A program made the translations under genes and the position numbers. A DNA stretch of 64,000 bases from Acidimicrobiales bacterium (GTDB lineage Bacteria; Actinomycetota; Acidimicrobiia; Acidimicrobiales; GCA-2861595): NCBI GenBank assembly GCA_030448025.1, contig JAUJNQ010000001.1:474970-538969 (forward strand), in the 5' to 3' direction. This document shows positions 16,750 through 37,710 of this stretch, in pieces. The notes beneath the pieces were generated by a model that was not told the origin of the DNA, did not search any database, and worked only from the letters and a program-made list of their open reading frames with translations. Position 1 is the stretch's first letter. Every line of letters begins with the position of its first letter.

Positions 16750-16762
16750 CGCAGACGCCCGG

Positions 16763-20100: not shown

Positions 20101-21405
20101 GACCACCGCCCCGGAGGAGATCAGCGCCACCGTGGGCAGGTCGGCCGGCCCGTGGTGCACGAGCGCCTGGCAGATCAGGCTCCGTGCCACTGCCAGGGCG
20201 ACCGGCCGGTTCCCGACGATGCCCGCCACGCCCCCCTCGGCGAGATCGACGTCGATGGGCACACCGGGCAGCGTCGACCGGCTCTCCAACAGTTCGACGA
20301 CCTCGCCGGGCGGGACGCCGACGCCGCCCCGCAACGGGGCGCGCCAGGCAAGGTCGCCGACGCCCACCCCGAGCAGGAGGAAGTCGGCATCGCCCGGGCG
20401 TCGCTCCCAAAGTCGCACGCTCGGCATCAGGGCCCGGCGCACCACCTCGCTCAGGTCGGGGACCAGTTGGCGGAGCCGGTGCGACTCCGCGCCGCGAGCC
20501 GCATCCAGAGCTCGCTCGAACGAGTCGAGATCCCGGGCATAGGCCTTGGACCGGTTCCGCCCTTCCCGGCCCGAACGAACCTTGCCGTCGATCCAGTTGC
20601 CGAGCACCATCACGGGGGTCAAGAGCATGAACAGCGCGTAGGTGATGCTGCGTAGGGCCACCACCATGATCAGTCCGAGCACGAGGGGAGCGATCAGGGC
20701 GACGACATTGAACGGTGGGGAGGTGCGGACCTCCGGCAGCGACGGCGCGCACAGCTCGCCCTCGAGCGGCGGCGGGGGCGCGGCCCGGGGTGGGCGGTTG
20801 AAGGCGATGGTGCCCGTCTGGCGCCCATGGCGCAACGGGTCGATGCCCGGCTGGCGGTCGTCGTCGGGTGGCGGTCCCACACTGCAGGCGACCGATCCGA
20901 TCCACATGGTCATGCCGGGAGGTACCGGGGTCGGCTCGCTCACGGGGCAGTCGCCGACCGCGGTGCCGTTCATGGATCCGAGGTCGCTGACCCCGCAGTC
21001 GCCGAGGGGCGACACTGTGAGCCGGCAGTGTCCCTTCCGGGAGACGGACCGGTCGCCGAGCACCACGTCGGAGCGGGGGTGGCGACCCACGACCGAGTCG
21101 CCCGGCAGTAGTGGTTCCCGACGGCCCGCTTCGATGCCGGAGAGCACGTGGAGCTCGGCCGCGGCCGGATGCTGCGGTGCCTCCTCGATGCCTCCGTGAA
21201 GACGCACGACGGCCCCGTCCACCAGCCCGCTCTCCGCCAGCCCCACGTCAGCGCCCACCATCCGGCCGTCGATGACCAGAGCGGTGCCCGGCGGGAGGTC
21301 CGGGTCGAGAGTAGAGGCCAGGTCCCCCACGGTGGCGTCGTGGCAGTTGACCCGAACCTCGGCCTCCCAGCTCCACGACCTACCGGCCTGTACGAACATC
21401 CTCAT
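17116..21405 (-). CDS. FHA-domain FtsK/SpoIIIE-family triple ATPase (EssC/EccC-like type VII secretion motor)
   Basis: FHA region VVGRHPRSDVVLGDRSVSRKGHCRL...LGSMNGTAV. Two TM helices (FNVVALIAPLVLGLIMVVAL / YALFMLLTPVMVLGNWI). Three P-loops (GTTGSGKSELL, GIPGSGTTTAL, GPPRSGRSNAL). The start is uncertain (21405 or 21471). Confidence 0.85.
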   Translation of the reverse strand: MRMFVQAGRSWSWEAEVRVNCHDATVGDLASTLDPDLPPGTALVIDGRMVGADVGLAESGLVDGAVVRLHGGIEEAPQHPAAAELHVLSGIEAGRREPLLPGDSVVGRHPRSDVVLGDRSVSRKGHCRLTVSPLGDCGVSDLGSMNGTAVGDCPVSEPTPVPPGMTMWIGSVACSVGPPPDDDRQPGIDPLRHGRQTGTIAFNRPPRAAPPPPLEGELCAPSLPEVRTSPPFNVVALIAPLVLGLIMVVALRSITYALFMLLTPVMVLGNWIDGKVRSGREGRNRSKAYARDLDSFERALDAARGAESHRLRQLVPDLSEVVRRALMPSVRLWERRPGDADFLLLGVGVGDLAWRAPLRGGVGVPPGEVVELLESRSTLPGVPIDVDLAEGGVAGIVGNRPVALAVARSLICQALVHHGPADLPTVALISSGAVVDWDWLKWAPHLRDAERARAHRVGADPGGSRAMLDELLAAARPGAPSGPVTTRPVVGREPKGPVRLVVIDDESQVAGRASLARSVLRGAAGPVAGIVIAGEERRLPAMCTTVLRVGEDGHDTEVHRPARRETLKNVSAAGLSEPLARQVARGLARLDDPETPTAGAGLPPAVALLPLLGMGRPTTGDVVRRWYAGGARPRPATPLGLGEDGIFELDLVRDGPHGVVAGTTGSGKSELLRSLVAGLAASVSPEHLTFVLVDYKGGSAFEACSRLPHTVGFVTDLDEQLGERALRCLEAELRHRERVLRGAQASDLSDYTSRAAEAGLAPLPRLVVVIDEFATLATELPGFVDALVGIAQRGRSLGVHLVLATQRPSGAVSPTIKANTNVRISLRVQDPADSADVIGVTDAAGIPRAQPGRALVRLGADEVLAFQAALVTGDSAEEERLPVEVEPFVLHPRCSDHPVSGGVTAEDSRSSDLTRLVDAVARAAGERGLAPQRRPWPDPLAPSIDLAEVADGRRPGRPALLRFAMADDPDAQTQFPTGWDLAGNLALFGIPGSGTTTALAGIALALAASTTPDDCHVHVLDLGAGDLGPLVGLPHVGSVVTASQPERQMRLVRHLRAELNRRRSLRSEERGSQPLLTLLVDGIAAFLVEHGEARGFGVYEDFARVWADGPSVGINTAVSADRIGALPHQLLSLVEQRWVFRLANPADGAAFGLRPHQLPRPTAGRAVMAGTGQVVQVGWAGRDLAAAVAAVAASAPVPIRPPATVGSLPAEVSVDEVTTATRLGGRPWVLGLGVADSTLAPAGLPLHDGEHATVAGPPRSGRSNALLVLAAAARSNPDVRISGVALRRSPLRGCAHLDDTFCDAASLAMLAEVVDTSDRPNLVLVDDADLIDDHSGAFARLLGMRRSDLHIVVAGRADALRSAYGHWTRDVRRSRAGLLFQPDPDLDGELFGVRLPRRQALALGPGRAYLVHDGELDVLQVALVSIGTR

Positions 21406-21558
21406 GTGACCGAACCCCGCGCCGTCATGCATGGTTGAGGAAGAGGTGATTGAAAACGCATCAAGATACACGAGGTTACTCGACGCGCACCGAGCCGGGC
21501 GGCGGCGAACGCTACGCTTTGCTGTCGCCTGGCGTTCACCTTCCCCGTCACCGCTGCT

Positions 21559-22560: not shown

Positions 22561-24303
22561 ATGACCGAAGTCGAGGCCGGTGACGGCGCGAGGGACTGTC
22601 CCGAGCGGCCCCGGAACAGAACCCTCGAGGAGCTCGGCTTCGTGTTCAAGCCCATGGTGCGCTGGCTCGATCCCCGCCAGCTCCTCGACACCTCGGCGCG
22701 GGTGGTGCTCTCGGGCATCTTCGGCACCTATGCCGACAAGCGGGAGCTCCAGGCGCTGATGCCCACCGAGATCTACGACCGGTCGGACCACGAGGAGCTG
22801 TGGCTCGACTACGTCGCCGACCTCGGTGACGGGTGGGACCCGACCTACAGCATCGCCAGCCTGCTCGCCGCTCCGACGCTGGAGGTCGCCTCGGACGAGA
22901 GGACGTACGACACGCAGCGGGGCCGGATCCTGGTCATGGGCGGGGACGCGGTCTACCCCGTCCCGAAGCGCGCCGACTACGAGAACCGCATGTTGGGGCC
23001 GTACCGGGCCGCGCTGCCATGCACCCACCATCGCCACCCCGAGTTGTTCGCTGTTCCCGGGAGCCACGACTGGTACGACGGGCTCGTCAACTTCACCAGC
23101 GTGTTCTGCCGGCAGTACTGGATCGGCGGGTGGAAGACACGCCAGAACCGGAGCCATTTCGCGCTCAAGCTGCCCCACGGATGGTGGCTGTGGGGCGTGG
23201 ACATCCAATTCGGCGACTACATCGACGAGGCGCAGATTCGGTACTTCACCGAGGTGGCGGAGAAGCACGTCGCCAGGGGGGACCGCATCATCTTGTGCAC
23301 GGCACGGGCGCCCGGCACCGGCGGGAGCCAGCCCCACCTTTACGCCGAGCGCAACCTCCAGTACTTCCAGCGCGAGATCGTGGCCCCGTCGGGTGCGGTG
23401 CTGGTTCTCCAGGTGACGAGTGGTCGCCACCACTACGCCCATTACCGGGAGCCTGACGGCCCGCGGCATCACGTAAACGGCGGCGGCGGCGGCGCCTTCC
23501 TCCATCCCACCCATCACCTTCCCGACCACCTCGAGCTGGAGACCGGTGAGGGCCCTCCCCTCAGCTACGAGCAGGTGGCCACCTACCCCTCCGTGGCGTC
23601 TTCACGCCGCCTCCGGAAGAGGTTGTTGCTGCTGCCGCTGCGCAACCCGGCCTTCGCTGCCTTCCTCGGCTCGGTGCAGGTGTTCCTGGCGCTGATGCTG
23701 GGTCTGCACCGCGACGCCGCCAACGAGTCGCTCGGAATGGCGGACCTGTGGGAGGCGCTCTGGACGAGCCCGACGGCTGTCCTGCTCGTCCTCTTCATGG
23801 TGGTCATCCTCGGGGCCATGGTTCGCTTCGCCCACGACGCCCCGGGCCTGACCCGTGTCCTGCTCGGCGCGGCGCACTCGGCGCTCCAGTTGGCGTCACT
23901 CGCCGGGCTGATGATCGCTTCGTCCAGTCTCACGGCAGCACTCGGCGTGCACGGGATCGTCTCCGTCATCGCCTTCCTGGGATTCCTCGCCGTGCTGGGC
24001 GGACTGGGCGGAGCGCTCGGCTTCGCCGCCTATCTCTGGGTCACGAACTGCCTGGGCTTTCACGCCAACGAGGCGTACGCGCCGCTTCGGGTCAAGGACT
24101 TCAAGCACTTCGTGCGCATGCGCATCGACCACAACGGGACGCTCACCGTGTTCCCCATCGGTGTCGACAAGGTGAGCCGCCGCTGGGAGCTGTGCACCGA
24201 GGGGCCTGCCCATGCTCCGTGGTTCCGACCGGAGCGAGGAGAGCTCGACGCCAAGCTCGTCGAGCGCCCCTTCGAGGTCGGTGCTGAGTTCAGGTTCAGG
24301 TGA
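22561..24303 (+). CDS. Calcineurin-like metallophosphoesterase with a C-terminal multi-TM region
   Basis: ADLGDGWD, MGGDAVYP and VPGSHDWYDG motifs. Hydrophobic segments in the last ~200 aa. Confidence 0.7.
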   Translation: MTEVEAGDGARDCPERPRNRTLEELGFVFKPMVRWLDPRQLLDTSARVVLSGIFGTYADKRELQALMPTEIYDRSDHEELWLDYVADLGDGWDPTYSIASLLAAPTLEVASDERTYDTQRGRILVMGGDAVYPVPKRADYENRMLGPYRAALPCTHHRHPELFAVPGSHDWYDGLVNFTSVFCRQYWIGGWKTRQNRSHFALKLPHGWWLWGVDIQFGDYIDEAQIRYFTEVAEKHVARGDRIILCTARAPGTGGSQPHLYAERNLQYFQREIVAPSGAVLVLQVTSGRHHYAHYREPDGPRHHVNGGGGGAFLHPTHHLPDHLELETGEGPPLSYEQVATYPSVASSRRLRKRLLLLPLRNPAFAAFLGSVQVFLALMLGLHRDAANESLGMADLWEALWTSPTAVLLVLFMVVILGAMVRFAHDAPGLTRVLLGAAHSALQLASLAGLMIASSSLTAALGVHGIVSVIAFLGFLAVLGGLGGALGFAAYLWVTNCLGFHANEAYAPLRVKDFKHFVRMRIDHNGTLTVFPIGVDKVSRRWELCTEGPAHAPWFRPERGELDAKLVERPFEVGAEFRFR

Positions 24304-24586
24304 CCGAGCGGTAAGCGAAGTCGGCCACCACGAGGCCCACCACCATGGCCGTCAGCGAGCAGACCATGGCTGTCCTGCCGAGGGAGTCGCCCTTCCGATG
24401 CCCGATGTACCCCAGCACGGCACCGATGACCCCGTGCAGCGGCGGGTAGACGAGGATGGCCAGCACAGCCAAGATGAAGCTGCCCACCGTGTAGCCCCGC
24501 CCTTCCAAGTGGCTGCTGCCGCCGGCGTGCACTGGCTCCGTCGAAGTGCCTGTGTTCGTCGTGCCTGTGTTCGAAGTGTCGGTCAC
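24296..24586 (-). CDS. DUF4190-like small membrane protein (96 aa)
   Basis: GTG at 24586 overlaps the upstream stop (GTGA). Thr-rich N-terminus, then two TM helices (GSFILAVLAILVYPPLHGVIGAVLGYIG and AMVCSLTAMVVGLVVADFA). Confidence 0.6.
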   Translation of the reverse strand: MTDTSNTGTTNTGTSTEPVHAGGSSHLEGRGYTVGSFILAVLAILVYPPLHGVIGAVLGYIGHRKGDSLGRTAMVCSLTAMVVGLVVADFAYRSVT

Positions 24587-25437
24587 GCGGGGTTCTCCGA
24601 TGGTCGATGGCGGATCCGGGAGCCGAGCGTCCGCCGAGCCTCGGCCACCCGGCGGTCCTTCTTGCGTTCCCACCAGAAGGCGGCGCCGAAGATCGCCAAG
24701 GCCGCCGTGAGGAGCAGCGGTGCCAGCAACCGAGGAGAGGCGCCGACGTACTCCTCCTCCTGATTGATCGGCACCGGACCGGTGAAGACAGGCCCGAGCG
24801 CCCCGGCGCCCACCGGCGCCAGTGTCTCGCCGGGAAGAGAACGATGGAGCACCCGGACCAGAGGCCCCGGGAAGACTTGGGGGGAGCGGCGGCGAGGGGT
24901 GGTCCTGCGTGCACGCACCCCCGGGCGGGGTCGCAGCTTGGCCGGACCCGGACCCGGTGTGGCATTCTCGGAGCCAGGCAGGGCCGCGGCCCCACCGGGA
25001 GGGTTCGGCCCCGCCTGGCCCGCCTGGCCCGCCGGCGGCTGCGCTTGGGTGCCGGCCCGGCATTCGGCCGTCGCTTGCTTTGGGGCGCCGACCGGAGGGG
25101 CCGCGGTGGTTGTCGGGATCCCGGGTTGTTTCGAGGACTCACCGGCGACCTGTGGACACGTCGTGGACGTGGTGGTGGTCTTCCCCGGCGCCCTGGTGGT
25201 GGACGTGGTGGTGGTCTTCCCCGGCGCCCTGGTGGTGCTCGTGGTGGTCGACGACGTGGAGGTTGGAGAGGTCGTGGTGGACGACGACGGTGTGGAGGAG
25301 GGTGGTGCACCGCCGCCTTGAGCCGCGGCCGGGGCGAAGGCGGCGGTCTCGGCGGCTGCGGCCAGGAGCCCGGCGGCGAGGAGGGCCAGGAGGCGGCCGG
25401 TCACTGGCCGGCCCCGCTGGAAGGGCGTCATCGCCAT
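24583..25437 (-). CDS. Secreted Ser/Thr/Pro-rich protein with a signal peptide and a C-terminal membrane anchor
   Basis: N-terminus RLLALLAAGLLAAAAETAAFAPAAAQ. TTSTTRAPGKTT tandem repeat. C-terminal LLAPLLLTAALAIFGAAFWWERKKDRR. Confidence 0.65.
   Translation of the reverse strand: MAMTPFQRGRPVTGRLLALLAAGLLAAAAETAAFAPAAAQGGGAPPSSTPSSSTTTSPTSTSSTTTSTTRAPGKTTTTSTTRAPGKTTTTSTTCPQVAGESSKQPGIPTTTAAPPVGAPKQATAECRAGTQAQPPAGQAGQAGPNPPGGAAALPGSENATPGPGPAKLRPRPGVRARRTTPRRRSPQVFPGPLVRVLHRSLPGETLAPVGAGALGPVFTGPVPINQEEEYVGASPRLLAPLLLTAALAIFGAAFWWERKKDRRVAEARRTLGSRIRHRPSENPA
25165..25236. repeat. Perfect 36-bp tandem duplication inside the Ser/Thr-rich gene
   Basis: ggacgtggtggtggtcttccccggcgccctggtggt occurs twice, at 25165-25200 and 25201-25236. 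Confidence 0.9.
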
Positions 25438-25447
25438 CTGGTGTTGA

Positions 25448-26140
25448 TCATGCGGGCTCCGCTCGCACTGGCTCGTCCGCCGCCTCCATGATCGCCGTCA
25501 CGCCCGTGTCGACGATCACTGTCTCGTCGACGGCACGAAGGTCGATGGTCTCTCGAGCTGAGGGCTCTTCGGGGGATGGCACCGAGAACAACGCTTCGAG
25601 GCCCGACCTCAGCCGCGCCAGCTCACCCAGGGCGGAGTCTCGCTGGTCGATGAGGACGGCGATCTCGGCCCGGAGCTCGCGGCGGCGGCGCTCTGCCTCA
25701 CCTGTGAGGCGGTCGGCCTCGGCCCGGGACCGGGTGACCATCTCCGCGCTCTCCCGCTTGGCGTCCTCGATCAAGGAGGCCACCTCGCCGGCCGCCTCCT
25801 CGTGGGTCCTGGAGGCAATCTCGGCGGCTGCCTTCTCGGCGTCCTGGCGCATCTCCCCGGCCGCCGCCCATGCCTCCTGGAGGACCCGACCGACCCGCTC
25901 GCCCAACTCGTCGAACGACGGAGGCGCGGCCGTGAACGCTTCTTCCTGAAGGCTGGCCACCTGCGCGCGGAGGGAAGCTCGCTCGCTCTTCAGCAACGCC
26001 AGCTCGGTCTCTGCGGCCTCCACCCGGACCTCGGCGTCGTTCAGCCACACGGCTTGCTTGACGATGTAGTCGTCGACCTGCAGCCGGTCGTAGCCCCGCA
26101 TGGCGACGGCGAACTCCGGAAGCGATCCCTCCTCGGTCAT
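25448..26140 (-). CDS. DivIVA-domain protein
   Basis: EFAVAMRGYDRLQVDDYIVKQ is followed by a long coiled-coil (AEVRVEAAETELALLKSERASLRAQVASLQEE...). Confidence 0.8.
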   Translation of the reverse strand: MTEEGSLPEFAVAMRGYDRLQVDDYIVKQAVWLNDAEVRVEAAETELALLKSERASLRAQVASLQEEAFTAAPPSFDELGERVGRVLQEAWAAAGEMRQDAEKAAAEIASRTHEEAAGEVASLIEDAKRESAEMVTRSRAEADRLTGEAERRRRELRAEIAVLIDQRDSALGELARLRSGLEALFSVPSPEEPSARETIDLRAVDETVIVDTGVTAIMEAADEPVRAEPA

Positions 26141-26212
26141 CGACTCACTCCTTCTGTGCTGGTAGGCGTCTGGGAATCGTCATGGTCGGAACGGGCCGCA
26201 CTGATCGGGGTG

Positions 26213-27418
26213 TCAGGCACAGGAACCCCCGAGGGACGAGGCCAGCAGGAGCTGCCCCATCGCCACCCAGGCCGCCCCGTAGTAGGTGGGGGATCCCCGG
26301 TCGAGATCCTCGGCCTGGGACAGCAGCACGTCCCGGGCACGGTAATCGCCGGCAGCGTGGGCCGCGGCCGCGGCCCCGACGGCCTTGGCCGGGTGGGGAG
26401 AGCTCTGGATCGGACGTCCCTGCAGATCCGACGACATCGCCGTGCCCATGCCGGGCGCCGCCGCCAGCGCCGGCCAGCTGGTTGCCGCCACCCGCTCCCA
26501 CGCTGTTCCGCACGGGGCCAGCCGTGGTAGGAGGCGCGTGGCATCGAGGCCGTAACGGGGACCCTCGGCCTCCCCGTCCGGAGCCGGGACGGGCTCGAGG
26601 GCACCGGTGGGGCCGAGGCGCGACCAGTCCGGGGGGAGGGGCCGATCGGGAAGGACCAGTCGTTCGAGCAGCCGCCGGCTGGTGTGGGCCATGGCCGGCC
26701 AGCGGGGATCGTCCGTCTCCTGCGCCATGGTGGCCACCGCACCGGGGGAGAGGTAGCTGGGGTTGACCATCCTCGGTTCACGAGCCCATGGTCCGGCAGC
26801 CAGCACTATTCCGTCGCCGGCACGGCCCTCGCGGGCAGGGGCCTCGCCGGCGGCGTCGTCGACCCGGATGGTCTCGTGCTCCAGAACGGCGGCCGCCATG
26901 CGGAGCCCCTCGGCACGAAGGCTGTCGTCGTCGAACCGGGTCGCGGCGAGGACGAGCGCCCAGGCTGCGTCCAGGTCGGCATCGGCGGCGGGCATGGGGT
27001 CCTGGACCCGTCCGTCGGCCCACCGCCAGGCCAAGAGAGCATCCGGGCGCTGAAGATTTAGTCGGGCCCACTCCCAAGCCAGGTCGAAGCGACGGCGGTC
27101 ACCTACGGCCTGGGCCAGGAGCATGGCGTAGGCCTGTCCCTCGCTCACGCTGTCCCCACCCTGGTCACGCCTGACGACTCTGCCGTCACGGTCGAGGTAG
27201 CGGTCGAGGAAGCGGTGGGCGGCGGCGCGCCCGGCGTGGTCGACGCCCTCGGCGTTGCCGGGAGCCGACCGGTGACCGACGAGGAAGGAGCTGCCGAGCG
27301 CCACCGCTGCGGTGGAGCTCACGAGGACGACGATGACGGTGAAGCCCGGACGGCGAGCGTCATCGCCGGAGCGGACGGCGCGCCCGGTACTCGGCGATCT
27401 TGATCTGTGGGGCCTCAT
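26213..27418 (-). CDS. Glycoside hydrolase family 8 (endo-beta-glucanase, BcsZ-like), membrane-anchored
   Basis: ATG at 27418 overlaps the upstream stop (ATGA). TM segment FTVIVVLVSSTAAVALGSSFLV. SEGQAYAMLLA and AADADLDAAWALVLAATRF blocks. Confidence 0.75.
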   Translation of the reverse strand: MRPHRSRSPSTGRAVRSGDDARRPGFTVIVVLVSSTAAVALGSSFLVGHRSAPGNAEGVDHAGRAAAHRFLDRYLDRDGRVVRRDQGGDSVSEGQAYAMLLAQAVGDRRRFDLAWEWARLNLQRPDALLAWRWADGRVQDPMPAADADLDAAWALVLAATRFDDDSLRAEGLRMAAAVLEHETIRVDDAAGEAPAREGRAGDGIVLAAGPWAREPRMVNPSYLSPGAVATMAQETDDPRWPAMAHTSRRLLERLVLPDRPLPPDWSRLGPTGALEPVPAPDGEAEGPRYGLDATRLLPRLAPCGTAWERVAATSWPALAAAPGMGTAMSSDLQGRPIQSSPHPAKAVGAAAAAHAAGDYRARDVLLSQAEDLDRGSPTYYGAAWVAMGQLLLASSLGGSCA

Positions 27419-29190
27419 GGCACCGGCGCTCCGGCGGCGTCGGGTATCGGCGGCCCCGGCCTGGCCACCCTGCGCACCTCGACGCGGTCTGCGCCGCTCC
27501 CGAAGGCAGCGACGGTCCGGGAGTTGTCGAGGGCCTTGCGCACCTCGCCGAGGCCTGTGGGCAGGTCGGCCAGGCCGCCCTGGATCACCGGGGTGGCGAC
27601 CACGTAGTCGAAGTGGCGCCATCCGTCCGGGAGCCGTTCGGCCACGGACGGGTCGAGGTTGGCCGAGAAGTCGAGCTTGTGGAACCACACCACTCCGAGG
27701 TCCCTGCTGAAGCCGCGCTCCACCAGGTCCACCCACATCGTGTCGTCCACGAGCAGGCGGCTGTCGCGCGACACGTTGGCGTCGATCCAGCGGGTGGCCT
27801 GGGCAACCGGCGCACCGGTCGTGGCGGTCATGAGGCGTCGGTCACCTAGGGCCCATTGGGGGGCCACGAAGACACCGGCCAGGACCACGGTGACGAGCAC
27901 CGCGGCGCGACGGACGGTCAGGTCGACGAGGTGGCGGCGGAGCGGCGGCGGCTGCGCTGCGGGCGTCGACGGCAGGCTCAGCACCGCCCGGCGCCTGGCC
28001 TCGAGGGCCGGGTGCTCCCGAGGCGCCATTCGCCGAGGGGGGAGCCACAGGGCATTGCCCAGACCGGCTACCAAGAGGGCGGCGAAGGGCAGGAAACCGA
28101 TGACCAACGGCCCCGGCAGGTAGCCTTCGCGCATCACCATGAGGGCGGGGATCCCGAGGGCCAGAGCCATTGGGCGCAGACTTCGGAACCACAGGGATGG
28201 CACGAGCGCGACCAGGCCGGCCCCGAGCAGCCAGGGATCGAGGTCGAGCCACGTCGACACGATCCGGTGGGCCGGCTGGGTGGCATCCAGAACGCTCCCG
28301 CTGGACGGGCGGGTGAAGAGCTGGAACCGGATCGCCTCGAACAGGCTCACGTGGTCACCGCCCGGCAGCAACTCCCCCTTGAGGAGTGCGGCCAGGGGGT
28401 AGGCGACGGCGGTGAGCACCAGGCTGCTGGCGAAGGCGGTGAGGCAGAACCGCCGGGTCCGGCGGTCGCACCTGGACCAGAGCTGGGCCACTACGGCGGG
28501 GAGGAGCAACAGGGTGGTCTCCTTGGTCATCAGTGCCGCCGCGAAGCAGGCGCCCCCACCTGCGTAGGCCCACAGCTTCGAAGTGGGTGACGACACCAGG
28601 ACCAGGGCGGCCAGGACCCAGGGGATGGCCAGGTTGTCGAGCAGCACCATGCGGTGGTAGCTGAGCCCGAGGGGGGTGAGAGCGAAGAGCAGCACCGCGG
28701 CCGCGGCCGCCACCCGATGTAGGCCGATGCGGCGTCCGAGCAGGTAGAGAAGGGCGCAGCTGGCGAGCTGGACGAGGAGCATCAGCTCTCGGCCTTCGGC
28801 CACGGCCCCCACACCCCCGTCAAAGGCGCGGGTGACCCACGTCCAAGCGGCGATCGCCAGCCATCCCAGAGGAGGATGGTCGTACCAGTAGGTGTAGTGG
28901 GCTAGCTGGCCCGTTCGCTGCACGGCCCACGCCTGGGCCATGTACGTGCCCTCGTCGTCGGACGGTCCAGGCGACGTGGCCATCCCCCAGGCGTGGACCA
29001 CACCGACCACCACCAGCAACCCGGCGAGGAGCAGGAGGCTCGAGCGGTGGGACGACGCCCAGGCGCCCAGCCGGCTGCGCAGCGTCGGACCGGACGGCAA
29101 CGACGCCTCGATGGTCGCCAGGTTCGGGAGCTCGTGACGGGCACCGGGCGGTCGGGGCGCCAGGCGGGGCAGCTCGAGGTCGGTGATCAC
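27415..29190 (-). CDS. GT-C fold membrane glycosyltransferase (GT39/ArnT-like)
   Basis: GTG at 29190 overlaps the GT2 stop (GTGA). First-loop motif SDDEGTYMAQAWAV..YTYWYDHPPLGW. More than 8 predicted TM helices, then a soluble C-terminal domain. Confidence 0.7.
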   Translation of the reverse strand: MITDLELPRLAPRPPGARHELPNLATIEASLPSGPTLRSRLGAWASSHRSSLLLLAGLLVVVGVVHAWGMATSPGPSDDEGTYMAQAWAVQRTGQLAHYTYWYDHPPLGWLAIAAWTWVTRAFDGGVGAVAEGRELMLLVQLASCALLYLLGRRIGLHRVAAAAAVLLFALTPLGLSYHRMVLLDNLAIPWVLAALVLVSSPTSKLWAYAGGGACFAAALMTKETTLLLLPAVVAQLWSRCDRRTRRFCLTAFASSLVLTAVAYPLAALLKGELLPGGDHVSLFEAIRFQLFTRPSSGSVLDATQPAHRIVSTWLDLDPWLLGAGLVALVPSLWFRSLRPMALALGIPALMVMREGYLPGPLVIGFLPFAALLVAGLGNALWLPPRRMAPREHPALEARRRAVLSLPSTPAAQPPPLRRHLVDLTVRRAAVLVTVVLAGVFVAPQWALGDRRLMTATTGAPVAQATRWIDANVSRDSRLLVDDTMWVDLVERGFSRDLGVVWFHKLDFSANLDPSVAERLPDGWRHFDYVVATPVIQGGLADLPTGLGEVRKALDNSRTVAAFGSGADRVEVRRVARPGPPIPDAAGAPVP

Positions 29191-30479
29191 GCCGCGCCCT
29201 GGACAGATGCGGGGCGGGCGACCTCGGCGTCGATGACCGCCGAGTGGCGGTGGGCGCCCACGTGGGTGGTCTTCTCCCACCCGCGCGCGCCGGCGAGCTC
29301 CCGGACGAGTGCCCTCACGGCGGCGCCGGCCAGGATCACCTGGTAAGGGAACGTCCCGAGGATGAGGCGCACGTAGTCCCGCACCCGGGGCCGGCAGTAG
29401 TAGAGCCGGCAGAACTCGCGGAGCCCGGCCACCTCGAAGGACAGCGTGGCCAGCGTGGGGACGGCCGGAAGGAAGGAGAGGAGGGCCAGCGCCAGCGGAG
29501 CGTCGAAGGTGATCATCGACACCACCGAGGCCGGGATGGCAAGGCCCGTGAAGGCCTGGAGGAAGGGCATGGCCAGGGTGTAGCGGGCCAGCCAGCGCTG
29601 CCGGCGGCGGGGGAGGCGTCGCCACACACCCTTGCGCCAGACCTGGAAGAAGCCCTGGTTCCAACGGGTGCGCTGCTTGAACAGCGCTCCCACGCTGTCG
29701 GGCGTCTCCTCCCGAGTGGCCAGCTCGGGGTCGTAGGCGACCTCGACCACCGCGCCCAGGGCGCTCAGGCGGACGCCCAGCTCACAGTCCTCGGCCAGGC
29801 ACTCCGGGTCCCAGCCCCCGACCGCTCGGAGGATGTCGCTGAGGACGAACACGGTGTTCCCCCCGAGGGGGATGAAGCGGTGGATGGCGTGGAGGTGGAG
29901 CCGGCTGCGGAACCAGAAGAAGTACTCGAGGCAGTTCCGCAGCGAGTACCAGCTCGAGGAGAAGTTCATGAGCTGCACACCGCCCTGGACCACCTGGGCG
30001 CCGGAGCGACGGAAGGCCGCGTCGACCTGGCGGAGGAGCCGCGGATCCACCTCGTCCTCGGCGTCGAACACACCGACCACCTCCCCGCGGCAGTGAGGCA
30101 GAGCAGTGTTCAGGGCCTTGGGCTTGTTCTTGGGGACGTTGTGGTCCACCACCACCCGAAGCCGCCCGGGCCAAGACTCGGCGGTCTTCATGGCCACCTC
30201 GTGCGTACCAGGGTCGTCGTGGCCCACGACCACCAGCACCTCGTAGTCGGGGTGGTCGAGGCGCATTATTCGCTCCAGAGTGGCGGCCAGCACCGCCTCC
30301 TCGTGGCGGGCGGGGACGATCAGCGAGAACGAGAGGCGCGGCTCCTCACCCCGGACGGGGAAGCCGGTGGCCTCCAGGGTGGTGGGGGTCCGCCAGGCGT
30401 GGAGCATCCACCACAGGGTGGCGGCGGCGATGGCGGTCATCGCCAGGGACGCGACCAGGAAGCAGACCAGGAACAGCAC
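29187..30479 (-). CDS. Processive family-2 glycosyltransferase (cellulose-synthase-like / PNAG-synthase-like)
   Basis: SLIVPARHEE, VGVFDAEDEV (DxD), LAEDCELGVRL and QRTRWNQGFFQ (QxxRW), flanked by TM helices. Confidence 0.8.
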   Translation of the reverse strand: MLFLVCFLVASLAMTAIAAATLWWMLHAWRTPTTLEATGFPVRGEEPRLSFSLIVPARHEEAVLAATLERIMRLDHPDYEVLVVVGHDDPGTHEVAMKTAESWPGRLRVVVDHNVPKNKPKALNTALPHCRGEVVGVFDAEDEVDPRLLRQVDAAFRRSGAQVVQGGVQLMNFSSSWYSLRNCLEYFFWFRSRLHLHAIHRFIPLGGNTVFVLSDILRAVGGWDPECLAEDCELGVRLSALGAVVEVAYDPELATREETPDSVGALFKQRTRWNQGFFQVWRKGVWRRLPRRRQRWLARYTLAMPFLQAFTGLAIPASVVSMITFDAPLALALLSFLPAVPTLATLSFEVAGLREFCRLYYCRPRVRDYVRLILGTFPYQVILAGAAVRALVRELAGARGWEKTTHVGAHRHSAVIDAEVARPASVQGAA

Positions 30480-30638
30480 GGGTCAGCCCGAACCCAATGG
30501 GCATGACAGCTGCTGATCCTCGAGAACTGATGTCACGACGCCCCCCGCGCTTCCCCAAGCGTTTCCGGTCGCTGGCTTGTCGCCGCTCGACCCGTGCTGT
30601 CACGCTTCGGCGGGGATCTTCTTCCGTTTGCCTCGGCG

Positions 30639-31259
30639 TCACCTCGATGTCGACGAGGTGGTCCCCCTCGTCGTAGCGGTCCGGGCCGTCGTAGACGTCG
30701 TCGTGGACGACCGGTTCGTGGAAGGGCTCGTGGTGGGTGGCCTGGATGGCACCGGGCCGCGGGGAGCCGGTGCCCCCGGAGGTGGACCCTCGGGCGCCGG
30801 TTGCGAGCCGCGGAGGGCACCCGCTCGTTGCAGGAGCGGGTCGGATCGGCGACCGATCCTCTGCCGGTCGCCCTCGCCCAGGGCCTCGAGGCGCTGGCGC
30901 AGTCGAGCCGAGGCTCTGGCCGCCCGCTCCTCGTCACCGTCGTCCAAGGCCCGTTGAAGCTCGTTCACCGCCGACTTGGCGTCGGCCACCTTCACGCTGT
31001 CGACGGGTAGCCCGAGGGCATGGGCCGCGGCTCGGACGGGCCGTGGCATCGGCGCCCCACTGACGATCACGGTGAGGACGGCCGCCGCGGCGACCCCGGC
31101 GAGAGCTCGGCGGGGCCAGACCCGCCGGACCGCAGGCGTGGTGGCGTCCTCGGCCACCGCCCGGTGCAGCGCAGCGATCTCGGCCTCGCTCGGTTCGACC
31201 TCTTCCGGGCGGAGGGCGTGCTCCAGCCGTCTGAGGAGGTCCTCGTCCTCAGACGCCAC
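30639..31259 (-). CDS. Putative anti-sigma factor (single TM, Pro/Thr-rich tail)
   Basis: Overlaps the ECF sigma stop by 11 nt. Short cytoplasmic N-terminus, TM ALAGVAAAAVLTVIVSG, extracytoplasmic helical region. Confidence 0.55.
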   Translation of the reverse strand: MASEDEDLLRRLEHALRPEEVEPSEAEIAALHRAVAEDATTPAVRRVWPRRALAGVAAAAVLTVIVSGAPMPRPVRAAAHALGLPVDSVKVADAKSAVNELQRALDDGDEERAARASARLRQRLEALGEGDRQRIGRRSDPLLQRAGALRGSQPAPEGPPPGAPAPRGPVPSRPPTTSPSTNRSSTTTSTTARTATTRGTTSSTSR

Positions 31260-31839
31260 CGGCGGTCTCCTCCTCCAACAGCGAGCGCAGCCGCCCCAGG
31301 GCGCGGGACTGGGCCATCCGTACGGCCCCGGCCCGGCGACCCAGCACCCTTGCCGCGTCCTCGGCCGGCAGGCCGGCGATCACCCGCAGGTCGAGCACCT
31401 CCTGGTCGTCGGGCCCAAGCCGGCCGTATGCGGCCCGGAGCGCGCCGGCCTCCTCCTGGTGGAGCATCCGGTCGAGGGGCAGGGGTGCGTGGTCCACGGT
31501 TTCCGGAACGGGATCGGAGCTCTCCTTGCGCTTGCCCCCCTGGGCGTCGAGGACGACGTGGCGGAGGATCCCATAGAGCCAGGCATCGAAGCCGGCGCCC
31601 TCCGAGCGGAACCGGTGGATCCCCTTGACGGCGCGAACCATGGCCTCGCTCACGGCGTCCTGCGCTTCTTCGCCCCCGGGCAGACGTCTTCTGGCGTACG
31701 CCAGCAATCGGGGGTAAGAGCGGCGGTACAGGGCCTCCCAGGCGCTGGCGTCGCCGTCCCGGGCACGCCGCACGAGGTCAGGCACCTCCGTCGGGTGCAC
31801 CTCATCGTCCATCTGTCGTCGTCGTTCCTCGGATGTCAC
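31249..31839 (-). CDS. ECF-type RNA polymerase sigma-70 family factor
   Basis: DLVRRARDGDASAWEALYRRSYPRLLAYARRRL (region 2) and EVLDLRVIAGLPAEDAARVLGRRAGAVRMAQSRALGRL (region 4). The start may be 31812. Confidence 0.85.
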   Translation of the reverse strand: MTSEERRRQMDDEVHPTEVPDLVRRARDGDASAWEALYRRSYPRLLAYARRRLPGGEEAQDAVSEAMVRAVKGIHRFRSEGAGFDAWLYGILRHVVLDAQGGKRKESSDPVPETVDHAPLPLDRMLHQEEAGALRAAYGRLGPDDQEVLDLRVIAGLPAEDAARVLGRRAGAVRMAQSRALGRLRSLLEEETAGGV

Positions 31840-32147
31840 GGACCTGACGCCGGCCGACGATGAAGACGTGGCAGGAGAGGTTCCCGGCGGCTCCCATACA
31901 GTCCTGCCCCCAAAGGCCCCCCGGGGAAACGTGGGCCACGACGAATCGAGTGAGGGAGTGCTGTGCTCGGCTCGCCGCCCCGCGGCGGCCTCGGCCGCGA
32001 CGACGGGCGATTCGAGCGGGCGTCACCCATCGTCGGGCATCTCGGCTATGGTGGTCCAGGCCCGAGCGCAAGAAACGCCACTCTGGTCCGGACGCTTGCC
32101 GCCGCTTTCCTGAGTCGGATGGGTGCCCCAGCGAGAGAAGGCGCCCT

Positions 32148-32846
32148 GTGTCAGAGTTCCACGAGTTCAGCCACCGCATTGGCGCGCTGTCTCAGACCCT
32201 CCTGAGCGACGAGACCATCGATGGGTTCTTGGCTCGAGCGGCCCGCCTCAGCGTGGCGCTCATCCCCGCCTGTGACGCCTGCAGCGTGTCGGTGGCCGGC
32301 GACGGCAAGGTGCGCACCAGGGCGTCCAGCGACGCATTGGCGGAGCGAGTGGACCACCACCAGTACGAGCAGGACCAAGGCCCGTGCCTGGAGGCCATCC
32401 ACACCGGCTCCACGGTGCGCAGCGTTGCCTACGCCGAGGAGCGCCGCTGGCCCAAGTTCGTGCCTCTGGCCATCCCCGAGGGAGTGGTGGGGTCCTACTC
32501 GCTCCCCCTGGAGGCGGGGGAGCGCACCGTTGGTGCTCTCAACCTCTACAGCCTGAAGGAAACCTTCGGCGACGATGACCAGGAGCTCTCGGACGCCTTC
32601 GCCGACCAGGCCGCCGTGGCGGTGGCCAACGCCGGTGCCTACCACCAGGCCCTCGAGCTCAGCCGTCACCTGGAAGAGGCGCTCAAGTCCAGGGACGTGA
32701 TCGGCCAAGCCAAGGGCATCATCATGGAGCGCGAACGCGTCACCGCCGACCAGGCCTTCGACATGCTCCGCAAGGTGTCCCAGGCGAGGAACGTGAAGCT
32801 GCGCGAGGTCGCCGACCTCGTCGTGCTGACGGGCACCTGGCAGTAG
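32148..32846 (+). CDS. GAF-ANTAR RNA-binding antiterminator-type regulator
   Basis: GTG at 32148 after GAGAGAAGG. GAF core (..QDQGPCLEAIHTG..VGALNLYS) plus ANTAR (LKSRDVIGQAKGIIMERERVTADQAFDMLRKVSQARNVKLREVA). Confidence 0.85.
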   Translation: MSEFHEFSHRIGALSQTLLSDETIDGFLARAARLSVALIPACDACSVSVAGDGKVRTRASSDALAERVDHHQYEQDQGPCLEAIHTGSTVRSVAYAEERRWPKFVPLAIPEGVVGSYSLPLEAGERTVGALNLYSLKETFGDDDQELSDAFADQAAVAVANAGAYHQALELSRHLEEALKSRDVIGQAKGIIMERERVTADQAFDMLRKVSQARNVKLREVADLVVLTGTWQ

Positions 32847-32855
32847 CTCACACTG

Positions 32856-33545
32856 GTGTCCGACGCCGGAGCCGCCTCACCGACCTACTTGCTTTCTCAA
32901 CTGAGGCTCGCTGAGCAGGCCTTGCCCGAGGTGCTGGCCCGCGTCGTGGACATCGTCCGCAACGCGACCGACGGGTGTGACGAGGCCGGCCTGGCTCTGG
33001 GCGATCCCGCCGTGGCCCCTGCCAGCACCGGGGCCATGGCCGCCGCCCTCGACCTGGGCCAGCGAGAGATTGACGAGGGCCCGTGCGCGGCCTCCCTCCG
33101 GTCGGGCACGGTCGAGGAGTTCGAAGCGACCACTCATGACCCTCGCTGGCCGCGCTTCACCACGCTCGCCCGCCAGAACGACCTGAGCGCCTGCCTGGCC
33201 GTGCCGCTGGTGACAGGACCCCATACCATCGGGGTCCTCAACCTGTACACCCGGATGGCCGGTGGCTTCGGTCGTCTCGGCCGCCAGGCGGCCACCATCG
33301 TCGCCGAGCAGGCTGCCATCCTCGTGGCCAACGCTCAGGCTTACGCCGCGGTCCTCAGCAGGACCGATCAGCTGCGACGGCTCCTCACCGGACCCGAGGA
33401 CCTGGTGGCCCAGGCCACCGGTGTGCTCATGGCGCGCCACGAGCTGGGGCTGCAGACGGCGAGGACCCGCCTCGAGGACCAGACCCGCCACGGGAGCCGG
33501 AGCCTCGAGGACACTGCCCGGAGGATCGTCGACTCGATCGGTTGA
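32856..33545 (+). CDS. GAF-ANTAR regulator, tandem paralogue
   Basis: EGPCAASLRSG..IGVLNLYT (GAF) and LVAQATGVLMARHELGLQTARTRLEDQTRHGSRSLEDTARRIV (divergent ANTAR). Confidence 0.75.
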   Translation: MSDAGAASPTYLLSQLRLAEQALPEVLARVVDIVRNATDGCDEAGLALGDPAVAPASTGAMAAALDLGQREIDEGPCAASLRSGTVEEFEATTHDPRWPRFTTLARQNDLSACLAVPLVTGPHTIGVLNLYTRMAGGFGRLGRQAATIVAEQAAILVANAQAYAAVLSRTDQLRRLLTGPEDLVAQATGVLMARHELGLQTARTRLEDQTRHGSRSLEDTARRIVDSIG

Positions 33546-33586: not shown

Positions 33587-34261
33587 TCACTCTTCGTCCG
33601 AAGGATCTCTCCGTTCAGCCTCCAGACGGGTGAGCTCCTCGCGGTCGGAGGCGCCGGTCCTCTGGTGCCGGCGGACCAGCACGGCGACGGTGACCACGAC
33701 GGACAGGATCGTGAGCGGCACGACGTACTCACCCGTGAAGTCGAGGACGTAGGTGAGCGGCCCCGACACCTCTTCGCCGGCTGAGCGGAGCAGGACGACG
33801 GTGGCCAGCGTTCCGGCGATGTTGAGGAACAGGAACAGCCACGCCGCCATGCCCGATGCTCCGGCCAGCGCACACACCACACCACCCGGGAAGAAGAACA
33901 CCAGAACGGCGCCCCAGAAACGGAAATTGCGCTGGGCGGCCCGGAGGAGGCGGCCGGCCCCGAGCTTGCGACTCATCCACTCGACGGCGCCGTTGCCGTA
34001 GCGGCGCCCGAGCAGGTACAGGAACGGGTCCTCGATCAGGCGTCGGCCGAGGGCCACGGCGACGTAGGGAAGGACGTCCACCGATGTCGAGGTGACGACC
34101 AGGTGCCGGGTCGTGGCGTTGAGGACGAGCAGCAGGAGCGGGTGCTCGTTCACCAGCACGGGGAAGAGGGCGTTGCCCAGGCCTGCCGCGCCGAAGATCA
34201 CCACCAGCGGGACGATCAGCAGCAGGGGCGGGCGGCGTCCGGGCCGCCCGTCGTGGCTCAC
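33587..34261 (-). CDS. DedA/VTT-domain family membrane protein
   Basis: Multi-TM protein with EDPFLYLLGRRYG. Acidic C-terminal tail. Confidence 0.55.
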   Translation of the reverse strand: MSHDGRPGRRPPLLLIVPLVVIFGAAGLGNALFPVLVNEHPLLLLVLNATTRHLVVTSTSVDVLPYVAVALGRRLIEDPFLYLLGRRYGNGAVEWMSRKLGAGRLLRAAQRNFRFWGAVLVFFFPGGVVCALAGASGMAAWLFLFLNIAGTLATVVLLRSAGEEVSGPLTYVLDFTGEYVVPLTILSVVVTVAVLVRRHQRTGASDREELTRLEAERRDPSDEE

Positions 34262-34315
34262 CCTGTCGAGGTCTGCCGCCGGCGGGATGTTCTCCGGCTC
34301 GCTCGAGTGCTCCAG

Positions 34316-35269
34316 TCAGCTCCCGCTCTGGGCCTGGATGAGGTGGTACAGGAGGATGAGCTGGGTCAGCGCCAGAGGCTCGTCCCGCTTCCCGTTGATC
34401 ATGCCCAGCGACTCGGGCAGCGGCTCGTCCACGCCGAGCTCGGCCCAGATGGCCTCCTCCACCTGGCGGGTCATGTCCCGTGAGGCGTAGGAGTGGATGT
34501 GGAGGGCGTCCACCGGCTTGCCGTCGTCGTCCCGGGTGAGCTTCAAGTGCATGGCCTCGTGCACGTCCTCGGTGACGATGCCGGTGAGGTCGGGGTGCGA
34601 GATGGTGGGACGCAGGAGGAGGGTTGCCGAGAGCGGGTCCTCGGGTGTCTCGTTGCGCTCCTCGATGGGAGCGAAGCGCACGACGATGTCGGCGTCGGCC
34701 CGCTGGGGGTGGATGAACTTCTTGGACTCCGGCTCCCTCTTCTTGAGGTCGGCCGCCACCTCGTCCTTCGAGTAGCCCCGCTTGGATGTGTCGCGCGAGT
34801 ACTTCCACTGGTAGCGGATCTCCTCGGGAGGGTCGAGGAAGACCGAGACGTCGAAGCACGAGCGGAGCATCTTGTTGTAGAGGGGGAGCAGGCCGTCGAT
34901 GATCACGAAGTCCCGGGGCTCCACCAGCTCCGGCCGGCCCAGCGAGCCGTCGGTGTGGGAGTAGACGGGCTTCAGGATGGGCTCGCCGAGGGACAGCAGC
35001 TTGAGATGCTGCGCCATGATGTCCATGTAGTTGCACTGCGGGTTGAGCGGGGTGAAGGGCAGGGCCTTGCGCTCCTGGCGGTCGTAGCGGTGGTAGTCGT
35101 CCACGCACGCCGCGGTGATGCGCTCGGGGCCCAGTGCGGCCACCAGGCCTTCGGAGATGGTGGTCTTGCCCGTGGCCGAGTCACCGCACAGGGCCAGCAT
35201 GATGGGGCGCCTGGGCGATTCGCCGTTGGAACGAACCGTCTGCTCGACGTTCAGCTGCTGTTCAGGCAT
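34316..35269 (-). CDS. prk: Phosphoribulokinase (PRK/uridine-kinase family)
   Basis: P-loop LALCGDSATGKTT. KPVYSHTDGSLGRPELVEPRDFVIIDGLLP and EEIRYQWKYSRDTSKRGYSKDEV. Confidence 0.8.
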   Translation of the reverse strand: MPEQQLNVEQTVRSNGESPRRPIMLALCGDSATGKTTISEGLVAALGPERITAACVDDYHRYDRQERKALPFTPLNPQCNYMDIMAQHLKLLSLGEPILKPVYSHTDGSLGRPELVEPRDFVIIDGLLPLYNKMLRSCFDVSVFLDPPEEIRYQWKYSRDTSKRGYSKDEVAADLKKREPESKKFIHPQRADADIVVRFAPIEERNETPEDPLSATLLLRPTISHPDLTGIVTEDVHEAMHLKLTRDDDGKPVDALHIHSYASRDMTRQVEEAIWAELGVDEPLPESLGMINGKRDEPLALTQLILLYHLIQAQSGS

Positions 35270-35304
35270 GGTTCCTCGCTGTGGTCAGGGTACGGGCCGC
35301 TGGG

Positions 35305-35997: not shown

Positions 35998-36003
35998 GGT
36001 GGG

Positions 36004-37558: not shown

Positions 37559-37710
37559 TCTCGCCTCCCAAGCCGACGCCGGCCGCTGGAAGCTCCGGAG
37601 GCGGCCCCCGCAGGCAGAGATGACGGAGAGCGAGGAGGGGGATCCGGCGAAGCCGGGATCCCGGAGAACGATCAAGCTCGCCGAGCAAGCTCTGCTTGGG
37701 AGGTGAAAGC

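Follow-up and report, generated by a model that had tools for sequence, protein, structure and literature searches.

The window analysed here is a stretch of 64,000 nucleotides (nt) from an Acidimicrobiales bacterium (GCA_030448025.1, contig JAUJNQ010000001.1, positions 474,970 to 538,969), and the system in question is a gene cluster at window positions 24296-31839, built around a pair of glycosyltransferases. Eight open reading frames (ORFs) were found in this interval of about 70% G+C, all of them on the minus strand, as had been stated in an earlier reading of the letters (hereafter the original prediction). In the order of transcription they encode an extracytoplasmic function (ECF)-type sigma factor with Sigma70 domains (187 amino acids (aa), 31249-31812); a putative anti-sigma factor that crosses the membrane once and has an extracytoplasmic tail rich in Ser, Thr and Pro (30639-31259); a membrane-embedded family 2 glycosyltransferase (GT2) with a minimal cellulose-synthase-like fold (430 aa, 29187-30479); a glycosyltransferase of the GT-C fold (591 aa, 27415-29190); a membrane-anchored endoglucanase-like glycoside hydrolase of family 8 (GH8), of the BcsZ/CMCax type (401 aa, 26213-27418); a cytoplasmic DivIVA-domain coiled-coil protein (230 aa, 25448-26140); a mucin-like Ser/Thr-rich membrane-anchored protein (284 aa, 24583-25437); and a small membrane protein with two transmembrane (TM)-like segments (96 aa, 24296-24586). 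Read directly from the sequence, the stop of the GT2 gene and the start of the GT-C gene overlap in GTGA (29190-29187), the GT-C stop and the GH8 start in ATGA (27418-27415), and the stop of the Ser/Thr-rich protein and the start of the small protein in GTGA (24586-24583); these are exactly the coupling overlaps that had been claimed. The sigma gene and the next gene share 11 nt (31249-31259). Contigs from an uncultured Actinomycetota population of metagenome-assembled genomes (MAGs) carry a gene for a protein identical to the window GT2, and the window GT-C protein was found at 100% identity on a 740-kb NCBI contig.

Relatives of the cluster were collected by a scan with the GT2 over one genome per species, which gave at least 572 confirmed relatives; the best 80 were examined as loci, and comparison of the window's eight proteins with these 80 loci by tblastn was the basis of the counts of window-type neighbours. 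In the best 80 the GT2 is 59-74% identical, with 60-72% given for the comparison across classes, and these loci span the Actinomycetota, namely Acidimicrobiia, Thermoleophilia, Mycobacteriales, Nocardioides/Kribbella, Microbacteriaceae, Streptomyces/Kitasatospora and Actinoplanes. The GT-C gene adjoins the GT2 gene on the same strand in all 78 loci with room for it, the other two being contig ends, and this adjacency spans Acidimicrobiia, Thermoleophilia, Mycobacteriales, Propionibacteriales, Micrococcales, Streptomycetales and Micromonosporales, with 4-nt overlaps between the two genes in the window and in relatives. A GH8 gene is present in 48 of the 80 loci and a cluster-linked DivIVA-like gene in 20 (Acidimicrobiia, Thermoleophilia and some Mycobacteriales MAGs). 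The sigma gene was found in three, and tblastn gave no homologue of the Ser/Thr-rich protein or of the small protein with two TM segments in the 80 loci. The GT-C enzyme is the obligate partner of the GT2 in this cluster family. The universal unit consists of GT2 and GT-C and the wide core adds GH8 and the DivIVA-domain protein; the ECF pair and the genes of the Ser/Thr-rich and small proteins are a local elaboration in close relatives. Conservation of gene order in relatives had been set beforehand as a test of the ECF-led eight-gene unit. The full eight-gene order is kept in two relatives (L088 and L089, GT2 identity 91-93%), so the order is conserved, but the eight-gene unit is lineage-specific and what is widely kept of it is just GT2, GT-C, GH8 and the DivIVA-domain gene.

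Gene fusions were searched among 1.84 billion cluster representatives, which yielded 431 GT2 relatives at E <= 1e-30, and the best 150 of them were inspected. Nine of these 150 carry GT2 and GT-C in a single polypeptide, and in 17 a second, small GT2 domain is fused to the GT2 (GT2b::GT2). Fusions with a flippase-type domain (GtrA/DPMS) were found as well, in P0253 (GtrA+GT2), P0300 (GT2b+GtrA+GT2) and P0373. The small GT2 encoded next to the cluster in relatives best matches PpgS, AglJ, a Dol-P-hexose transferase and ArnC, all below the cut-offs. From these fusions it can be argued that the synthase-like GT2, the GT-C enzyme and the supply set for a lipid-linked sugar share one pathway. The synteny and fusions support a functionally linked envelope-glycan cluster rather than a chance neighbourhood. 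More distant GT2 relatives (35-45% identity: P0292, P0310, P0317, P0322, P0326, P0303 and P0373) are fused to other domains, which are LysM, VWA, Big_7 (Ig-like), FHA, or GtrA together with an FAD amine-oxidase-like domain; a DUF58/VWA gene also lies two genes upstream of the GT2 gene in L090, and both observations point to further variants of the system.

The GT2 was matched to PF13641 (Glyco_tranf_2_3 type) at 5.8e-42. Residues D88/D89, D139-x-E141-D142, E230-D231 and Q269-R-T-R-W273 are invariant in the family, as is W401-E-x-T404-x-H406 after the last TM helix. One N-terminal TM helix and a set of C-terminal ones are predicted, about four altogether. In the AlphaFold2 (AF2) model (pLDDT 85.5) the ED dipeptide opens helix 230-240, QRTRW lies within helix 263-283, and the chain ends about 35 residues beyond the last TM helix. 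Foldseek gave PcManGT as the nearest solved structure (7e-14, TMt 0.75), followed by Chlorella virus hyaluronan synthase (1e-12), Xenopus hyaluronan synthase and BcsA (2.7e-12, TMq 0.67), and no GtrB, DPMS, ArnC or other polyprenyl-phosphate sugar synthase appeared among its top 50 matches. By sequence, the family profile matches PcManGT, BcsA and ceramide glucosyltransferase (8.5e-5). The best named NCBIfam matches are the XrtP-associated glycosyltransferase, PgaC/IcaA (6.9e-19) and EpsU, all far below their cut-offs. The D,D,D,QxxRW signature with flanking TM helices, as read in the original prediction, was thereby confirmed, in a membrane-embedded, cellulose-synthase-like architecture with invariant residues and matching folds.

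The GT-C enzyme matches the Pfam family PMT_2 (1.6e-7, 32.1 bits against a cut-off of 26.1), and the PMT family model PF02366 gives 17.5 bits, under its cut-off of 22.7. When the family profile was compared by sequence with the PDB, no match was obtained at E <= 1, and so no solved PMT; structure prediction was needed for this reason. The AF2 model (pLDDT 90.3) was confirmed by Foldseek to have the GT-C fold, with matches to ArnT (1.5e-9), STT3/AglB/PglB, ALG12/9/3, Pmt4, AftD and Emb. An invariant D78-D79-E80-G-T-Y motif (residues 78-83) follows TM1, in the first outer loop. In the earlier label of a GT39/ArnT-like enzyme, the GT-C fold and the likeness to ArnT were borne out; the PMT (GT39) model stays below its cut-off.

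The GH8 protein was assigned by PF01270 (3.2e-27) and matches the NCBIfam BcsZ model at 6.9e-29, with 100.9 bits against a cut-off of 299. Compared with PDB entries, the profile comes nearest to CMCax (1wzz, 1.9e-46), then to BcsZ of E. coli (3qxf, 8.3e-35), with chitosanases (2.4e-14; 1v5c listed) and xylanases far weaker. The motifs S92-E93-G94 and A144-x-D146-A147 (AxDAD) are invariant, an N-terminal TM segment lies at residues 23-48, and no carbohydrate-binding module was detected in the protein by the Pfam scan. As the proposed BcsA-BcsZ-like pairing of a synthase with GH8 would have it, the nearest solved relatives of this protein are endoglucanases of cellulose synthesis, CMCax and BcsZ. 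Taken singly, the window DivIVA protein is below the thresholds of PF05103 (21.8 bits versus 28) and TIGR03544 (16.8 versus 22), but the label holds for its family: 16 of 17 cluster-linked homologues match TIGR03544 (best 2.4e-6), the homologue in L086 matches PF05103 at 1.1e-8, and the N-terminus P8-E-F10....R15-G-Y-D-R19..V22-D23.Y25 is invariant. One large group of lineages keeps the DivIVA-domain protein as part of the cluster.

Four architectures were distinguished among the relatives. Variant I, in Acidimicrobiia, Thermoleophilia and some Mycobacteriales MAGs, consists of GT2, GT-C, GH8 and DivIVA-domain genes in permuted orders, often with 4-nt overlaps, and in L090 a GH6 gene (7385-8317) is added after the DivIVA-like gene. 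Variant II, in Nocardioides, Marmoricola, Kribbella, Lentzea, Microbacteriaceae and Tersicoccus, has GT2, GT-C, a DUF4397 protein, GH8 and a sortase, usually with a small PF00535 GT2 nearby. Variant III, in Streptomyces, Kitasatospora, Actinoplanes and Catellatospora, combines GT2 and GT-C with a small GT2, after which comes a GlxA-like copper radical oxidase; GH8 is missing, and the GlxA-like oxidase (PF09118, PF07250) stands in its place in 27 loci, related MAGs included. In variant IV, from Mycobacterium and Mycolicibacterium, the GT2 is accompanied by a GT-C protein of 985-995 aa with a C-terminal DUF4397 domain (3.6e-10), and GH8 follows. Searches of the 64-kb window found no small PpgS-like GT2, GtrA, GlxA, DUF4397, sortase or family 4 carbohydrate esterase (CE4).

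Some further details of these variants were recorded. The GT-C::DUF4397 proteins are exemplified by L029:11263-14220 (Mycobacterium sp. ACS1612, with a further TM segment) and L044:10957-13944 (Mycolicibacterium austroafricanum), and in Nocardioides, Kribbella and Microbacteriaceae the domain fused there has a gene of its own, linked to that of a sortase. The separate DUF4397 proteins (L056:13250-14146, L062:13317-14270 and L021:13200-14080) have at their end a conserved motif, G-G-[VA]-x-T-G-[GL]-G, after which L056 shows a hydrophobic stretch and a basic tail; this resembles a sorting signal that would be read by the sortase from the second gene downstream. The core of L084, an Acidimicrobiia-type relative, is flanked (7995-9844 and 14832-16874) by genes for a CE4 deacetylase, on the upstream side, for an Acyl_transf_3-SGNH acyltransferase, on the downstream side, and for a YNCE-like beta-propeller. 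CE4 was seen in L084 and L085 only and is not a conserved member.

The cluster was then compared with known systems. With the bacterial cellulose synthase (Bcs) system it has in common that a GT2 of synthase type and an endoglucanase-like GH8 protein share an operon, and the window GT2 shows D,D,D,QxxRW in a membrane-embedded enzyme and a fold match to BcsA; however, it scores far below the curated models (24.8 bits versus 699.1 for TIGR03030 (CelA), 18.7 versus 992 for PRK11498), the eight window proteins have no PilZ and no BcsB Pfam match, BcsC is likewise absent, and the GT-C enzyme holds the place of the second subunit. It has been reported that cellulose systems combine a core synthase, a non-homologous second partner and a glucanase (PMC11022532), a logic that the window cluster follows with GT-C as the second partner. 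Streptomyces CslA, which is 27% identical to BcsA, has been described as having seven TM helices, a putative gating loop (FxVTxK) and PilZ-domain elements (PMC11022532). The window GT2 is smaller, with 430 aa and about four TM helices and without PilZ, and its W-E-x-T-x-H motif is only loosely like the gating loop. GH8, GH6 and GlxA are the accessory proteins known from the cellulose systems Bcs and CslA-GlxA-CslZ (PMC11022532, PMC9040799), and the described cslA neighbourhood contains no GT-C transferase (PMC9040799), unlike the cluster studied here, in which GT-C is the obligate partner. The window glucanase is moreover GH8 instead of GH6, and GlxA is absent from the window. Both systems nevertheless unite a D,D,D,QxxRW GT2, a non-homologous membrane partner and a beta-1,4-glucanase, and the parallel with Streptomyces CslA was strengthened by the relatives: a GlxA-like oxidase comes after the orthologous GT2-GT-C pair in Streptomyces, Kitasatospora, Actinoplanes and Catellatospora, and the GH6 of L090 belongs to the CslZ family. 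A connection with DivIVA is another shared trait, in the window as genetic linkage of a DivIVA-domain gene and in Streptomyces as an interaction of CslA with DivIVA, reportedly from work of Xu et al. in 2008, which PMC13432765 cites. By this analogy, polar deposition of the glycan may be imagined.

The Pga system does not fit either, as TIGR03937 (PgaC_IcaA) gives 68.1 bits against a cut-off of 422.3 and the window cluster has no CE4. In GtrB/GtrA/GtrC, CsbB/YfhO, GacI/GacL, PpgS/Rv3779 and ArnC/ArnT, a GT-C enzyme uses a polyprenyl-phosphate sugar that is made by a small GT2 and flipped by GtrA. The window GT-C has the fold and the acidic outer-loop motif of this type (ArnT 1.5e-9, DDEGTY), and relatives of the cluster encode or fuse such a small GT2 and GtrA, neither of which lies in the window cluster. 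However, the invariant GT2 beside the GT-C enzyme is cellulose-synthase-like and not of the GtrB/DPMS type, and the known systems decorate a polymer from a separate pathway. The cluster thus only half fits the GtrB/GtrA/GT-C type, and it fails to fit Bcs, CslA-GlxA-CslZ and Pga. In the assembly of Salmonella O:54 (WbbE/WbbF and WaaL), a processive GT2 elongates a lipid-linked primer and a membrane enzyme transfers the product. Assembly of this kind would account for the joint occurrence of GT2s of primer and synthase type with a GT-C enzyme, but the window GT-C is ArnT/OST-like by fold and not of a recognised ligase family, and a lipid-linked polymer and its en bloc transfer are hypothetical here. 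The original prediction did not recognise the combination as a described system, and no description of this cluster was found in the full-text literature searched, which did not cover subscription-only literature. Read as a synthase-type glycan system in which GT-C is the obligate partner, the cluster is widely conserved and apparently undescribed.

As for the genes at the head of the cluster, the sigma factor contains sigma-70 regions 2 and 4 only (Sigma70_r2 5.6e-17, r4_2 1.7e-6, Sigma70_ECF 5.4e-6, and r4 too) and scores 87.6 bits with TIGR02937, over the cut-off of 42.9; its best NCBIfam family matches, ShbA, BldN and SigM, are each under cut-off. Its open frame reaches GTG 31839, and the gene callers choose ATG 31812. 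A fully conserved leader with GAGGAA stands before this ATG, which is more likely the start. The putative anti-sigma protein has one TM-like segment (residues 51-72) and a C-terminal part of about 56 residues (window 30639-30806) with 43% Ser+Thr and 21% Pro; a counterpart of 204 aa is called in L089. Neither Pfam nor NCBIfam gave a family for it up to E <= 1. Of the sigma/anti-sigma pair that had been predicted, the sigma factor was thus borne out by its domains, but the anti-sigma assignment is positional, from the 11-nt overlap and the single TM segment.

Upstream of the sigma gene a candidate ECF-type promoter, GGAAC-N20-CGTC, was located at 31856-31884 (minus strand); its GGGAAC and CGTC are kept in L088 and L089, and the spacer sequence differs. 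Upstream of the GT2 gene a candidate promoter, GGAAAC-N20-CGTC (30537-30566, minus strand), lies inside a conserved intergenic block, GGAA(A)CGCTTGGGGAAGCGCGGGGG..GTC, which is nearly invariant in L088 and L089. The two upstream motifs share the shape GGAA(A)C-N20-21-CGTC and are suggestive as candidate ECF promoters, to be taken as a lead only. A riboswitch or structured leader 5' of the GT2 gene (30480-30638) was considered and rejected, as there was no Rfam match and the fold z was -0.55 versus shuffles; a promoter or operator was favoured for this region. Across 23800-32400, no sigma-70 promoter was predicted, and the search for intrinsic terminators gave one terminator-like site, on the wrong strand and within expectation.

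At the other end of the cluster, the Ser/Thr-rich protein has a signal-peptide-like N-terminus, 56% Ser+Thr in residues 41-110, and a C-terminal TM segment with a basic tail. No Pfam match was obtained for it, and its ORF is real, being open at 284-305 aa in L088 and L089. The earlier description as a mucin-like Thr-rich secreted protein was accurate for the signal-peptide-like start and the Ser/Thr tract, but free secretion was not supported, since the C-terminal TM segment anchors the protein. It had also been proposed as acceptor of the GT-C enzyme; as a general acceptor it was ruled out, because it is conserved in close relatives only. The tail of the putative anti-sigma protein, five genes upstream, resembles this mucin-like tract, and both could be targets of O-glycosylation, which would allow a glycosylation feedback to the ECF sigma factor. 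The small protein with two TM segments is kept in L088 and L089 with its start overlapping the preceding stop. DUF4190 (PF13828), the name given to it earlier, was dropped, as the match has E = 0.52 and 10.5 bits against a cut-off of 35.

Taken together, the gene content, synteny, fusions and predicted folds lead us to favour, with moderate confidence, a synthase-type envelope beta-glycan system with a GT-C partner that would use a polyprenyl-phosphate donor. The product is probably a beta-1,4-glucan-like (cellulose-like) polymer, which is the best guess because the accessories GH8, GH6 and GlxA are the set of cellulose systems. We infer that the GT2, a possibly processive enzyme, would elongate a beta-linked glycan from a cytoplasmic nucleotide sugar at the membrane and would perhaps export the chain too. 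The GT-C enzyme, with its DDEGTY loop, predicted to be catalytic, on the outside, would use a sugar donor linked to polyprenyl phosphate and would either decorate the emerging chain, as GtrC, YfhO and GacL do, or transfer a lipid-linked glycan to a surface protein or the wall. The small PpgS/AglJ-like GT2 and the GtrA-like domain of the relatives would supply and flip this lipid-linked sugar, and in the window genome they would be encoded outside the cluster. The membrane-anchored BcsZ-like GH8 may trim or release the chain, with GH6 or the GlxA-like oxidase in this role in other lineages, and the cytoplasmic DivIVA-domain protein may position or scaffold the complex.

Several points weigh against this envelope beta-glycan system. 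No biochemical or genetic data were found for any cluster member, and no PilZ, BcsB or GlxA was found in the window. The nearest solved structure of the GT2 is the mannosyltransferase PcManGT, which is not a polymer synthase and is not known to be processive, and with only about four TM helices the GT2 may be unable to build a translocation channel by itself. A match of the GT2 to Glyco_transf_21 (8.5e-8) was obtained as well and, through the family profile, one to ceramide glucosyltransferase (8.5e-5); these are lipid glycosyltransferases which have QxxRW too. Among the NCBIfam models PgaC/IcaA (68 bits) ranks above CelA (25 bits), and so N-acetylglucosamine (GlcNAc) is possible as the sugar. 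On the side of regulation, the promoter motif was defined after the fact, and GGAAM-N20-21-CGTC is not enriched in the window, with 3 matches versus 3.26 expected, the third of them on the start codon of the phosphoribulokinase (PRK) gene. A spacer of 16-18 nt is typical of ECF promoters, and that of the motif is unusually long. The motif search proposed for 30480-30638 has thus produced a conserved candidate but no window-wide enrichment, and because of the latter the evidence for the motif is its position and conservation.

The best-surviving alternative, which we regard as unlikely, is that the genes serve lipid-linked glycosylation and that no polymer synthase is involved. A non-processive GT2 of the PcManGT/GT21-like kind would add one or a few sugars, at the cytoplasmic face, to an acceptor linked to polyprenyl phosphate or to another lipid; after flipping, the GT-C enzyme would transfer the sugar or short glycan to a lipoglycan or to surface proteins, either Ser/Thr-rich or with DUF4397, in the manner of archaeal AglJ/AglB or actinobacterial Ppm1/Pmt. 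Such a pathway agrees with PcManGT as the best structural and sequence match of the GT2, with its Glyco_transf_21 and ceramide glucosyltransferase matches and with its few TM helices. It also agrees with the nearness of the linked small GT2 to AglJ and PpgS, with the likeness of the GT-C enzyme to ArnT, OST (oligosaccharyltransferase) and Pmt, with the Ser/Thr-rich tracts on the mucin-like protein and the anti-sigma ectodomain, and with DUF4397 surface proteins linked or fused to GT-C. However, the small GT2 and GtrA already cover the supply of lipid-linked sugar in many clusters, in which the large GT2 would not be needed for that task. The BcsZ/CMCax-like GH8, GH6 and GlxA-like partners work on beta-1,4-glucan polymers or together with them, and short glycans on proteins are not their targets. 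Over the full GT2 model, the matches to hyaluronan synthase and BcsA are nearly as good as that to PcManGT, and the Ser/Thr-rich protein is limited to close relatives.

A more far-reaching form of the synthase-type reading, which is rather doubtful, is a hybrid pathway found throughout the phylum, in which GT2 and GT-C, fused in some organisms, form one obligate complex making a lipid-primed beta-1,4-glucan, with GT-C handing the chain covalently to a surface anchor. This anchor could be a DUF4397/sortase-anchored protein, the mucin-like membrane protein or the wall. If this were true, the cluster would supply the non-Bcs synthase of cellulose type that is missing in many Actinomycetota, environmental mycobacteria among them; in the window lineage it would be tied to the ECF sigma factor, and the Ser/Thr-rich ectodomain of the anti-sigma protein could report the glycosylation status to transcription.

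It is less probable still that the same architecture makes a GlcNAc-based polymer (PNAG-, chitin- or chitosan-like), with GH8 as a chitosanase-type trimmer. This would suit the NCBIfam ranking of the GT2, with the XrtP-associated glycosyltransferase, PgaC/IcaA (6.9e-19) and EpsU as best matches and CelA at merely 5e-6, the presence of chitosanases (1v5c) in the GH8 family, and the CE4 deacetylase and Acyl_transf_3-SGNH acyltransferase of L084; but every one of these NCBIfam matches is far under cut-off, the GH8 profile matches CMCax/BcsZ at 1e-46 to 1e-35 versus 2.4e-14 for chitosanases, CE4 is confined to L084 and L085, and GH6 and GlxA-like partners indicate cellulose-type systems (PMC11022532). 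Finally, unrelated neighbours or a catabolic cellulase locus without common function, for which one could cite the frequency of long ORFs in high-GC genomes and the fame of GH8 as degradative cellulases, are very improbable and effectively refuted by synteny, in view of the 78/78 GT2-GT-C adjacency across several classes, the fusions, the 4-nt overlaps, the complete eight-gene order in relatives, and the position of a membrane-anchored GH8 without detected carbohydrate-binding module between glycosyltransferase and scaffold genes.

Surface beta-glycans of Actinomycetota matter in polar growth, aggregation and biofilms, and the enzymes beyond Streptomyces CslA-GlxA are largely unknown; according to a 2019 review, the mycobacterial cellulose pathway had not been identified (PMC6364259). 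The architecture described here joins a synthase-type GT2 and a lipid-donor GT-C, two arms of glycan assembly which are usually held separate, and the module links the GlxA-type and BcsZ-type accessory sets. In scale, relatives occur in at least 572 candidate stretches of species-representative genomes, and carriers can be cultured (Mycolicibacterium, Nocardioides, Kribbella, Actinoplanes and Streptomyces), which makes the cluster experimentally tractable.

The related assembly L081 (GCA_030447265.1) aligns to the window in blocks split by about 100 unaligned L081 bases, with breaks at window positions 27385-27701, 31952-32001 and 37573-37627. At the break in the GT-C region the window exceeds L081 in length by about 215 bases, and no GT-C gene is called in L081; the missing call is an assembly artefact and not a gene loss.

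The flanks of the cluster were also inspected. On the plus strand, the gene at 22561-24303 encodes a 580-aa protein without Pfam match and with hydrophobic C-terminal stretches; it converges on the cluster, the 3' ends overlapping by 8 nt, and is found in the same place in L088 and L089. Farther downstream of the cluster, at about 18975-21430 on the minus strand, lies a gene for a very large protein with FHA and double FtsK/SpoIIIE ATPase domains (1438 aa in L081), which is kept in L088 and, by the L081 annotation, sits just past an alpha/beta hydrolase. Divergent from the ECF sigma gene are two tandem GAF-ANTAR regulators (32148-33545, plus strand), one of which is also present in L088. Beyond them, at 33587-37020 on the minus strand and outside the conserved cluster, a DedA/VTT-domain membrane protein (a weak match, 27.2 bits versus 33.9) is encoded next to phosphoribulokinase, ribulose-phosphate 3-epimerase and class I aldolase, a Calvin-cycle-like trio. 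DedA proteins are tied to polyprenyl-phosphate recycling.

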